Below, one piece after another: positions 1 through 3,000 of a DNA stretch of 57,257 nucleotides. The position numbers are program-made. Every line of letters begins with the position of its first letter. Position 1 is the stretch's first letter. Source of the stretch: a virus (taxonomy: Duplodnaviria > Heunggongvirae > Uroviricota > Caudoviricetes); the IMG/VR virus record IMGVR_UViG_637000263_000002, one strand, 5' to 3'.

Positions 1-3000
1 TCAAAACTGAAAGCGCATCCAGGCAAAGTACACATTGCCATTGTTGTAGGTACCCGGAATGTAGGTCATCTGAAAAGTCACTGGGCCATAACCCACGGAG
101 GCCAATGGCAGTAGAACCGGGAGAGGGATGTAATTCCAGTTATCGCGTGCCGTTACGCCAGCGGTGAATCCCAGACCTAAATGAAAATTTTCATCCGCCA
201 GCGGTCGCCAGGTACTTTCCCATCCGTATCCGGCAATCGGTTCCCATTTGTTCCACGAGTCCTTAAATGCCATGGCATACAGGCCATGCCAGTTTCCTTT
301 TTCATCCCAACGCGACAGGCCAAAACCGCCACCCCACGGTCGCTCGTTATAGCGATCGGTTTTTTCTTTGTCGTAAGCGAAACGTGCATGCCAGGTGATG
401 GCAGGAATATATAAATCATAATGTTCAGGCTGTTGCCAGGTTTGTGCAATATTTTCTCTAAACGTTGTCATCCTCTCATCTGCGTTAGCAAAAACTTTAC
501 CAACGCTGATTAACTGAATAAAAACAAAGGAAAAGATAGCGACATATTTACTCACGTTCATTTGTGACCATAAAACATTTATCAAAAATCTACTACTAGC
601 ATAGCAAAGCTACAATTAACATAACCTTAATAGACCCAACATAAAGAATAATCTGAATAGCTGCTCTATTTATTTCCGCTTGTTCAAGTTAAATATTTCC
701 GCGCATCGATTAAAGATGATGCGTCGTTTTCTGCGATGGGAATAGTCAAAAAAGAAAAACCAAGTCTTTTTTGATGACAAAATGCAATCAAGGAAAAATT
801 ATTTTATTTTTTTAACGAGATACAACAATCATCTTAACGAAGTATATAATATATATCGTCAACCCATGCTCATATTAGATTATTTTTTGAGCGCACAGCC
901 GCAACTAACACCATTGCAATTAACAAATTTGCATCAATCCACCATCAATTTACACACATTATTATGTGATAATTGCCAACCGCTAAATATGCGTTTTGTT
1001 ATCTATGTATAAAAACAGCAACTTCAATGTCTTAATGGCAGTTTTTCTTGATTTTAATCAGCATTCATCGCCAATTTATTGGGCATATTTTTTCCTTAAG
1101 CTTTAGGAAGTTTTTATTATTTACTTTGGGCCTGGAGACAGGAAAAATTATGCTGACATTCATTGAACTCCTTATTGGGGTTGTGGTTATTGTGGGTGTG
1201 GCTCGCTACATCATTAAAGGGTATTCCGCCACTGGTGTGTTATTTGTCGGTGGCCTGTTATTGCTGATTATCAGTGCCATTATGGGGCACAAAGTGTTAC
1301 CGTCCAGCCAGGCTTCAACAGGCTACAGCGCCACGGATATCGTTGAATACGTTAAAATATTACTAATGAGCCGCGGCGGCGACCTCGGCATGATGATTAT
1401 GATGCTGTGTGGCTTTGCCGCTTACATGACCCATATCGGCGCGAATGATATGGTGGTCAAGCTGGCGTCAAAACCATTGCAGTATATTAACTCCCCTTAC
1501 CTGCTGATGATTGCCGCCTATTTTGTTGCTTGTCTGATGTCACTGGCCGTCTCTTCCGCAACCGGTCTGGGGGTTTTGCTGATGGCAACCCTGTTTCCGG
1601 TGATGGTAAACGTTGGTATCAGTCGTGGCGCAGCAGCTGCCATTTGTGCCTCCCCGGCGGCGATTATTCTCGCACCGACTTCAGGGGATGTGGTGCTGGC
1701 GGCGCAGGCTTCCGAAATGTCGCTGATTGACTTCGCCTTCAAAACGACGCTGCCTATCTCAATTGCTGCAATTATCGGCATGGCGATCGCCCACTTCTTC
1801 TGGCAACGTTATCTGGATAAAAAAGAGCACATCTCTCATGAAATGTTAGATGTCAGTGAAATCACCACCACTGCCCCCGCGTTTTATGCCATTTTGCCGT
1901 TCACGCCGATCATCGGTGTACTGATTTTTGACGGTAAATGGGGTCCGCAATTACACATCATCACTATTCTGGTGATTTGTATGCTGATTGCCTCCATTCT
2001 GGAGTTCCTCCGCAGCTTTAATACCCAGAAAGTTTTCTCTGGTCTGGAAGTGGCTTATCGCGGGATGGCAGATGCGTTTGCTAACGTGGTGATGCTGCTG
2101 GTTGCCGCTGGGGTATTCGCTCAGGGGCTTAGCACCATCGGCTTTATTCAAAGTCTGATTTCTATCGCTACCTCGTTTGGTTCGGCGAGTATCATCCTGA
2201 TGCTGGTATTGGTGATTCTGACCATGCTGGCGGCAGTCACGACCGGTTCAGGCAATGCGCCGTTTTATGCGTTTGTTGAGATGATCCCGAAACTGGCGCA
2301 CTCTTCCGGCATTAACCCGGCGTATTTGACTATCCCGATGCTGCAGGCGTCAAACCTGGGTCGTACCCTATCACCCGTTTCTGGCGTAGTCGTTGCGGTT
2401 GCCGGGATGGCGAAAATCTCACCATTTGAAGTCGTAAAACGCACCTCGGTGCCGGTGCTTGTTGGGCTAGTGATTGTTATCGTTGCTACAGAGCTGATGG
2501 TGCCAGGAACGGCAGCAGCGGTCACAGGCAAGTAAATAGTAATGCCGGAGGCAAGTTTCCTCCGGCTTTATCATGTCACCCACTGTGGTATATGCGTTGT
2601 GGTCTGCCAACTTTGCCGTGAACAATTTCAGCAATAATCAGATGGCGGCTGGCGCAATATTCAAGATAACGCCTGGCAGTGGTGCGGCTGATGGTCAGTG
2701 CCTGCGCCACCGTTTCTGCCGTATGTTGCACACCAGGCTCTTTAAACAGTTTTCGCACCGCGTTTAGCGTCAAGGGGTCAATGCCGGTCGGCAGTTCGTC
2801 TTTGGGTTCACCGCGAGCATAGGCATTAAACATCTCATCAATTTGCTTCTGGCTGGCGCTATCAATACTTTCCAGCATATGTTTACGCTGGCGGAAACGG
2901 GTTAGCGTTTGCCCCAGTGTATTGATTCACTTGAAGTACGAAAAAACCGGGAGAACATTGGATTATTCGGGATCTGATGGGATTAGATTTGGTGGGGCTT

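Follow-up and report, generated by a model that had tools for sequence, protein, structure and literature searches.

The window analyzed here, i.e., the whole 57,257-nucleotide stretch, was found to carry a dpiA gene interrupted by a Mu-family left end, and this arrangement is very probably explained by a Mu-type insertion in dpiA followed by IS600-driven decay and rearrangement. The junction, which an earlier note on this DNA had placed at 2917/2918, was confirmed to be correct to the single base. The case is one of ordinary prophage-mediated pseudogenisation and IS-driven decay, present and annotated in many public Shigella flexneri genomes. It leaves current understanding unchanged, and its modest interest lies in a rare Mu-family immunity type and in a decay series that can be cleanly reconstructed. 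The features concerned are summarized in Table 1.

Table 1. Features of the window around the dpiA/Mu junction
Feature	Position	Strand	Remarks
pagP	1-561	minus	window start; collinear with E. coli
dcuC	1150-2535	+	intact, 461 codons; anaerobic C4-dicarboxylate carrier; chromosomal flank, collinear with E. coli
GC-rich hairpin between convergent dcuC and dpiA	2544-2566		resembles a bidirectional terminator (consensus scan only)
dpiA 3′ fragment	2576-2917	minus	codons 114-226 plus stop; HTH_64 DNA-binding domain (PF20714); receiver domain missing
CCCAG target pentamer	2913-2917		left copy of the 5-bp duplication; in L025 and L026, same pentamer after the right end of Mu
Mu-family left end (attL)	2918-3254	+	starts TGTATTG; 91.7% identity to Mu nt 1-447
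Transposase sites L1, L2, L3	2922-2944, 3032-3052, 3066-3090		each 0-1 mismatch versus Mu, alignment judged by eye
c repressor gene	3255-3764	minus	intact, 169 aa; PF02316; third immunity type
Divergent c/ner intergenic region	3765-3917		putative operators and early and repressor promoters, by position relative to Mu; promoter-like matches weak
ner	3918-4172	+	78 aa if the start is at 3936; PF13693
Truncated transposase gene A	4147-5781	+	544 of 663 codons (4147-5778); TGA stop supplied by the IS600 end
IS600	5779-7042	+	1264 bp, TG...CA ends, 99.6% identity to annotated IS600 copies
SEN34-like/vB_EcoM-689R2-like prophage head and packaging module	7043-15561	minus	unrelated to Mu

On the host side of the junction, positions 1-2917 of the window showed 98.8% identity to E. 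coli K-12, and 417 of the 418 nucleotides at 2500-2917 were the same as in the dcuC-dpiA region of an intact E. coli locus (L001), the divergence of the window from intact dpiA beginning just after ...GCGTTTGCCCCAG. The minus-strand frame at 2576-2917, in which the earlier note had recognized the C-terminal residues of DpiA (about 113) up to 2917, was indeed translated into L114-G226 of DpiA plus the stop codon, identical to WP_000126500.1, and the break in dpiA was located precisely between codons 113 and 114. This fragment is usually reported by gene callers as a 100-aa ORF with its start ATG at 2878. Compared with DpiA (CitB) of the E. coli DpiB/DpiA (CitA/CitB) system, residues 114-226 were 100% identical and the neighbors dcuC and pagP were shared, whereas the receiver domain (1-113) is here parted from the fragment and, in related contigs, fused to 14 Mu-encoded residues. 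The window encoded no polypeptide uniting the receiver with the C-terminal HTH, residues 114-226 being the only part present. As had been noticed before, the 5′ half of dpiA lies outside the window, in which nothing was found from the K-12 stretch running from fepA to dpiB and the 5′ part of dpiA. With positions 2500-3300 as the query, 5,417 of 5,426 E. coli genomes were matched; the matches listed covered 2500-2917 only, and none among them spanned the dpiA/Mu junction. According to the source names of the indexed proteins, S. boydii entries carry full-length DpiA.

On the phage side, the Mu-derived DNA in the window was a 2.86-kb stump at 2918-5780, with nt 1 of Mu aligned exactly to position 2918, where the Mu-type left end had originally been proposed to start. 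The 23-mer TGTATTGATTCACTTGAAGTACG occurred once in the window versus 0.00 expected from 100 shuffles. As is typical of Muvirus, a left end beginning with 5′-TG and containing L1-L3 was followed by genes in the order c (leftward), ner, and A (rightward), along which a Pfam search identified HTH_Tnp_Mu_1, HTH_35, and HTH_Tnp_Mu_1/2 + DDE_2 + Mu-transpos_C, the last combination belonging to a DDE transposase of the MuA type. All three genes were open reading frames, and the truncated transposase (A′) possessed D269, D336, and E392 and lacked residues 545-663. No Mu right end (R1-R3, ...CA-3′) was matched within the window at up to three mismatches, in agreement with the first reading of the sequence, and a blastn search with the whole Mu genome detected no Mu DNA past nt 2964 in the window except a 98-bp tail-fibre-assembly similarity at 54268-54365. 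The window accordingly holds equivalents of Mu nt 1-2964 only and not a complete inducible Mu genome with B, mor/C, lysis, head, and tail genes. A promoter and terminator scan yielded sites no more frequent than in shuffled sequence.

The right junction predicted by direct Mu transposition, composed of the Mu right end, CCCAG, and the 5′ side of dpiA, was formulated beforehand and scanned in IMG/VR, where three contigs matched. Two of the three (L025 and L026, both of the S. flexneri type) also carried the left junction. Both contigs were arranged in the order dcuC, dpiA 3′ fragment, CCCAG, Mu left end with c, ner, and A′ as far as Mu 2964, and IS600, which adjoins Mu at the position also seen in the window; after IS600 came an inverted G segment running from Mu 34785 to 31964, an internally deleted gin, com/mom, the terminus ...GCGCCGCTTCA, a second CCCAG, the dpiA 5′ part, and dpiB. 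The Mu sequence on the right of IS600 began at 34785 and ended at 36717. Their flanks read ...GCCCCAG/TGTATTG... on the left and ...GCCGCTTCA/CCCAG/CCGTTCATAGG on the right. The host flanks overlapped in exactly 5 bp of K-12 sequence (positions 42202-42206 of locus L012), so that the 5-bp target-site duplication of Muvirus was present in both contigs, the window having one end only. Mu prefers targets of the form C-Y-(G/C)-R-G (CYSRG), which CCCAG fits. The two-ended remnant amounted to 8,265 bp, about 29 kb of phage DNA being gone in association with IS600. In addition, the dpiA 5′ ORF of these contigs encoded DpiA 1-113 followed by LGEAAHEKRESVSR, 127 aa in total and matching the prediction, and this exact DpiA(1-113)/Mu-right-end fusion was present on 699 contigs bearing the name S. 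flexneri, with lengths of up to 4.83 Mb. The other half of dpiA, a Mu right end, and a 5-bp duplication, all of which the earlier note had proposed to look for elsewhere in the genome, were thus recovered together in L025 and L026, the duplicated pentamer being CCCAG.

The presence of both ends in one piece with CCCAG on both sides proves direct Mu transposition into dpiA with a 5-bp duplication. L025 and L026 are draft IMG/VR contigs that cross the multicopy IS600, where an assembly join is formally conceivable, though the two genomes agree. That the junction is instead secondary, an IS element or recombination having brought the Mu end to an already truncated dpiA, or that it is an assembly artefact, was judged to be of negligible probability. 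The region is certainly extremely rearranged, with three IS600, three IS911, and an IS2-type element; however, the first nucleotide of the Mu end adjoins dpiA directly, without intervening IS sequence, the exact 5-bp overlap of the host flanks consists of a pentamer matching the Mu target consensus, and the same joint recurs in many independent assemblies.

Several candidates for the missing parts were rejected in the course of the searches. P0014 (117 aa), the best short match when DpiA 1-113 was used to search for an N-terminal fragment, turned out to be an ordinary frameshifted allele, the locus being otherwise intact and of the E. coli type. The notion that S. flexneri lacks the 5′ half was wrong, as the 127-aa fusion sits in a 90% cluster represented by full-length DpiA. 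P0036, retrieved with MuA 546-663 as a possible reciprocal stump, came from tiny draft contigs starting at Mu nt 2966 and 87% identical to Mu (24 members), which are best explained as assembly breaks at the point of divergence between the stump and another, complete Mu-like prophage. The same protein search with MuA 546-663 revealed no MuA C-terminal fragment of lineage-wide spread.

The stump ended at an IS600 copy containing orfA (100 aa) and orfB (272 aa), whose length, TG...CA ends, and near-identity to annotated copies were those of IS600, a member of the IS3 family; it differed from the known element in having no 3-bp direct repeat, the flanking triplets being TAT and ATT. The flanks of IS600 in the two-ended contigs were likewise unlike each other (TAT and AAC). 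Since the flanking triplets differ, this copy marks a deletion or recombination joint and not a simple insertion. In the SEN34-like module beyond it, the interruption at approximately 12.8-14.1 kb is presumably an IS2-type element, as judged from ORF sizes only.

Two further structures bear on the joint found in the window. In L033, an IS600 lay between the SEN34-like module and a tail-fibre-like region with 93% identity to window positions 53636-54315. In L032, which belongs to the genome that also supplied the two-ended L025, the junction of IS600 with the SEN34-like module was also present. Taken together, these structures indicated that the joint of A′, IS600, and the SEN34-like module in the window resulted from homologous recombination between two IS600 copies, and we infer that the window arrangement arose later than the two-ended form. 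The further rearrangement implied in the earlier note thereby took a definite shape: IS600 cuts inside A, an unrelated prophage lies beyond, and the two-ended contigs preserve the prior form. By eye, ybgA was recognized nearby in L033 from ORF translation.

These structures very probably reflect the following course of events. In an ancestor of S. flexneri, a Mu-family phage with an immunity type of its own, related to that of the UMNF18 prophage, transposed into dpiA at codon 113/114 and duplicated CCCAG. A first decay step, an IS600-associated deletion of Mu nt 2965 to approximately 34785, produced the 8.3-kb two-ended remnant, which survives in some strains. In a second step, the IS600 of the remnant recombined with another IS600 copy next to an unrelated prophage, parting the left stump (attL, c, ner, and A 1-544) from the right one (G-segment genes, mom, attR, dpiA 5′, and dpiB), probably through inversion.

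As for this reciprocal step, the pagP-dcuC side of the window was reversed relative to K-12, and ybhB at 56781-57257, the final gene, which was recognized by eye in the translation, lies in what we take to be the K-12 orientation; this combination favors one or more inversions over deletion, and inversion was considered somewhat the better supported outcome. It is less likely that in the window genome an IS600-IS600 deletion between direct repeats occurred, by which the Mu right stump, the dpiA 5′ part, and their neighbors would have been lost and not inverted. Such a deletion would agree with the finding that nothing from K-12 612-654 kb lies in the 54 kb downstream of the junction, with the occurrence of IS600-adjacent deletions at this locus (a further 262 bp in L024), and with the failure to find a lineage-wide MuA C-terminal fragment. 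However, the 127-aa fusion and the left stump are of similar frequency (699 contigs for the fusion versus 463 for the exact A-544 protein), the fusion is also located on a complete 4.83-Mb chromosome, and the flanking backbone genes are oppositely oriented relative to K-12, as inversion predicts. A look-up of the ipaH ORF gave no match, and one of IS600 OrfB gave at least ten IS600 contexts, all of them unrelated.

Apart from the probable inversion, smaller, lineage-specific changes were observed at the locus. In L024, 262 bp more had been lost beside IS600, dpiB carried a premature stop at codon 508, and an insertion was present that resembles IS1 by its size and 9-bp duplication; a scan of viral contigs for this variant IS600/Mu junction returned only L024 itself. 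A similar insertion of IS1 size was found in the left region of L026. The series from the two-ended remnant through the IS600 recombinant to nibbling by IS1 and IS600 illustrates stepwise IS-driven prophage decay together with rearrangement of the Shigella chromosome.

The immunity region of the stump was of a distinct type. The c protein showed 36% identity to that of Mu, 28% to D108, 30% to SfMu, and 84.6% to the Mu-like prophage of E. coli UMNF18, and the corresponding values for Ner were 68%, 57%, 56%, and 98.7%. These identities ruled out membership in the Mu, D108, or SfMu immunity group as well as SfMu or D108 as the parent, and the remnant phage is, as judged from its repressor and Ner sequences, heteroimmune to Mu, D108, and SfMu. 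Of the 5,426 E. coli genomes, UMNF18 alone had the immunity region of the stump (89% nucleotide identity). A rare third immunity type is thereby documented for the Mu-like phages of E. coli and Shigella.

In comparison with Escherichia phage Mu (NC_000929/AF083977), the left ends were identical over their initial 41 nt, the 91.7% identity over nt 1-447 included L1-L3, the c-ner-A order and the 5-bp target duplication were shared, gene A displayed 97.8% nucleotide identity over nt 1511-2964, and the right end of the related contigs was 96% identical over nt 35635-36717, ending in the same ...GCGCCGCTTCA. The stump differs from Mu in c, Ner, and the divergent N-terminal domain of A, which give it another immunity type, and in its extent, since only 2.86 of 36.7 kb is left in the window, A is cut at codon 544, and B, the late genes, and the right end are missing. 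The UMNF18 prophage (NZ_AGTD01000001.1), which resides in yphC, was collinear with the stump, with 91.8% nucleotide identity over 2914-5780, 96% identity in A, and equal protein lengths; it differs in being (near) full-length, with B, gam, mor, lysis, head, and tail genes, and in its insertion site, and its left-end non-coding DNA resembles that of the stump less than that of Mu does. The element is thus a mosaic, attL being nearest to Mu (91.7%) and c-ner nearest to UMNF18, and speaking of one ancestral phage is a simplification.

Shigella phage SfMu shares the host species with the stump, and its gene A was 97.8% identical at the nucleotide level from codon ~57 on, but it has a D108-type immunity, with 30% identity in c and 82% in the left end. 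In the SfMu study, SfMu-hybridizing bands were observed in most S. flexneri strains and named remnants, the c-ner PCR was negative in every strain except the SfMu host, and no remnant was mapped to dpiA (PMC4406740). A heteroimmune stump would account both for the shared bands and for the negative c-ner PCR. Our literature search found no publication placing a Mu remnant in dpiA or tying dpiA/dpiB to Shigella pseudogenes or Mu.

The exact junction was identified in two GTDB species-representative genomes, namely, S. flexneri SFBU1023 and ECMA0423, the latter labelled E. coli. At least seven complete or near-complete S. flexneri-type chromosomes, including CP001383.1, CP012137.1, LM651928.1, CP020342.1, and CP026772.1, were 99.6-99.98% identical to window positions 1-15561 (15.5 kb), CP026772.1 (L005) being compared over 1-14810 (14.8 kb), and an eighth chromosome, CP020339.1, was 99.94% identical up to window position 6549, where the record ends. 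Over the 15.5 kb, the S. flexneri loci differed by 0.02-0.07%, or by 0.43% for the frameshift-rich L006. In the assembly collection, 945 index blocks contained the 544-aa truncated A; the exact c protein was found on at least 1000 contigs and the exact A-544 on 463, and the sources of the exact c, A-544, and truncated DpiA proteins were nearly all named Shigella flexneri. The Shigella-like lineage suggested at first sight can thus be specified, the carriers of the junction being S. flexneri-type assemblies. With the left junction occurring in every S. flexneri-type assembly retrieved and in none among the matches listed from the 5,426 E. coli genomes, it represents a clean lineage signature, exact in sequence and usable along with the IS600 variants as a PCR or in silico marker.

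As for function, dpiA was physically split between its receiver (1-113) and DNA-binding (114-226) domains. In E. coli, DpiB/DpiA activates citrate fermentation (citCDEFXGT) and couples SOS induction to beta-lactam damage. Because the receiver is separated from the DNA-binding domain, functional DpiA would not be made, and the DpiB-dependent activation of citrate fermentation as well as the other outputs of DpiA should be lost. The insertion thus offers a concrete structural reason for the predicted loss of the DpiB/DpiA system in S. flexneri. A literature search on Shigella together with the Christensen citrate, acetate, or mucate tests gave no match.

The stump itself is presumably immobile. 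Transpososome catalysis and the interactions with MuB and ClpX depend on domain III of MuA, and with one end and an A′ devoid of residues 545-663, which include domain III, the stump would be unable to transpose. A retained use of c-ner-A′, in which c confers immunity to UMNF18-type phages or A′ poisons incoming Mu-like transpososomes, was considered highly improbable. It might be read from the open c (169 aa), ner, and 544-codon A′, from the spread of the exact c on at least 1000 contigs and of the exact A′ on 463, and from the intact end-binding and catalytic domains of MuA. However, the S. flexneri loci are so nearly identical (0.02-0.07%, with 0.43% for L006) that intact ORFs are expected without selection and their intactness says nothing about it; moreover, SfMu, the known Mu-like phage of S. 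flexneri, is heteroimmune (c 30%), A′ would not be expressed in a repressed prophage, and a variant with IS1 inside the left region exists (L026). Equally far-fetched is a fuller version, in which the stump would be a domesticated module whose c, and possibly a dominant-negative A′, guards S. flexneri against superinfecting Mu-like phages, and in which transcripts running leftward from the c promoter, across attL and on into the dpiA 3′ fragment of like orientation, could yield a phosphorylation-independent DpiA DNA-binding domain of 100-113 aa with regulatory activity. Ordinary pseudogenisation by the prophage remains the preferred account of the locus.

In total, the window carries three IS600, three IS911, and one IS2-type element, and a lambdoid prophage with ipaH precedes ybhB.

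Comparison of the window with other S. flexneri chromosomes revealed that the segment 16811-17793, which lies between two oppositely oriented IS911 copies and carries a DedA-like gene, is inverted in the window strain; namely, in the other chromosomes position 15561 was shown to join directly to 17793, from which the sequence then runs leftward. In addition, a 176-bp exact duplicate was identified (16811-16986 and 30954-31129), of which one copy adjoins IS911 and the other adjoins IS600, thus suggesting another IS-associated rearrangement.

IS600 itself is present in three copies within the 57 kb, the middle one without 25 internal bp equivalent to 6543-6567 and the third between the lysis genes and the terminase of the lambdoid prophage. 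Furthermore, in the remnant of the SEN34-like prophage, the gene for the large terminase was found to be broken by an IS2-type element, tentatively assigned to IS2 by the sizes of its ORFs.

Coordinates of the features in the window
Feature	Position	Strand	Remark
IS600 copy 1	5779-7042		
IS2-type element	about 12790-14120		ORFs of 121 aa and 301 aa
IS911 copy 1	15562-16810	+	
DedA-like gene	within 16811-17793		170 aa, in inverted segment
IS911 copy 2	17794-19042	-	
IS600 copy 2 (middle)	20751-21987	-	
IS911 copy 3	24025-25273	+	
IS600 copy 3	31131-32395		
Terminase through J-like tail genes of lambdoid prophage	32396-54400		
IpaH-family E3-ligase effector gene	54681-56198	-	505-aa ORF
ybhB	56781-57257		

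At the distal end of the lambdoid prophage, the ipaH-family gene is located directly before ybhB, which on the K-12 map marks the att-lambda side of the chromosome. A protein look-up found no exact match on record for its product, and the ORF may therefore reflect a differently called start or a strain-specific allele.

In the S. flexneri-type contig retaining both Mu ends in dpiA (L025), mom (241 aa) is still open at 7464-8189, and the gin invertase gene at 7016-7227 has an internal deletion of ~380 bp (Mu 35256-35634), by which the G segment is locked in the inverted orientation. The rare immunity type of the left-end remnant in the window is shared with a near full-length Mu-like prophage in yphC of E. 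coli UMNF18 (NZ_AGTD01000001.1, from 3086976). This prophage may itself be defective, since the annotation marks its tail-sheath gene as partial.

Several draft contigs of other assemblies (L019-L021) start at Mu nt 2966, exactly 1-2 bases beyond the IS600 breakpoint of the remnant, and run on into MuB and kil. These starts probably represent an assembly-graph fork in a strain having both the remnant and a complete Mu-like prophage. CP178302.1 ('Escherichia coli strain ECMA0423'), which is used as a GTDB species representative, was shown to possess the S. flexneri-specific dpiA::Mu junction together with numerous [15 protein letters not shown] genes such as pagP, dcuC, and lipA. The record is probably a mislabelled genome of Shigella flexneri in which long-read errors were left uncorrected.
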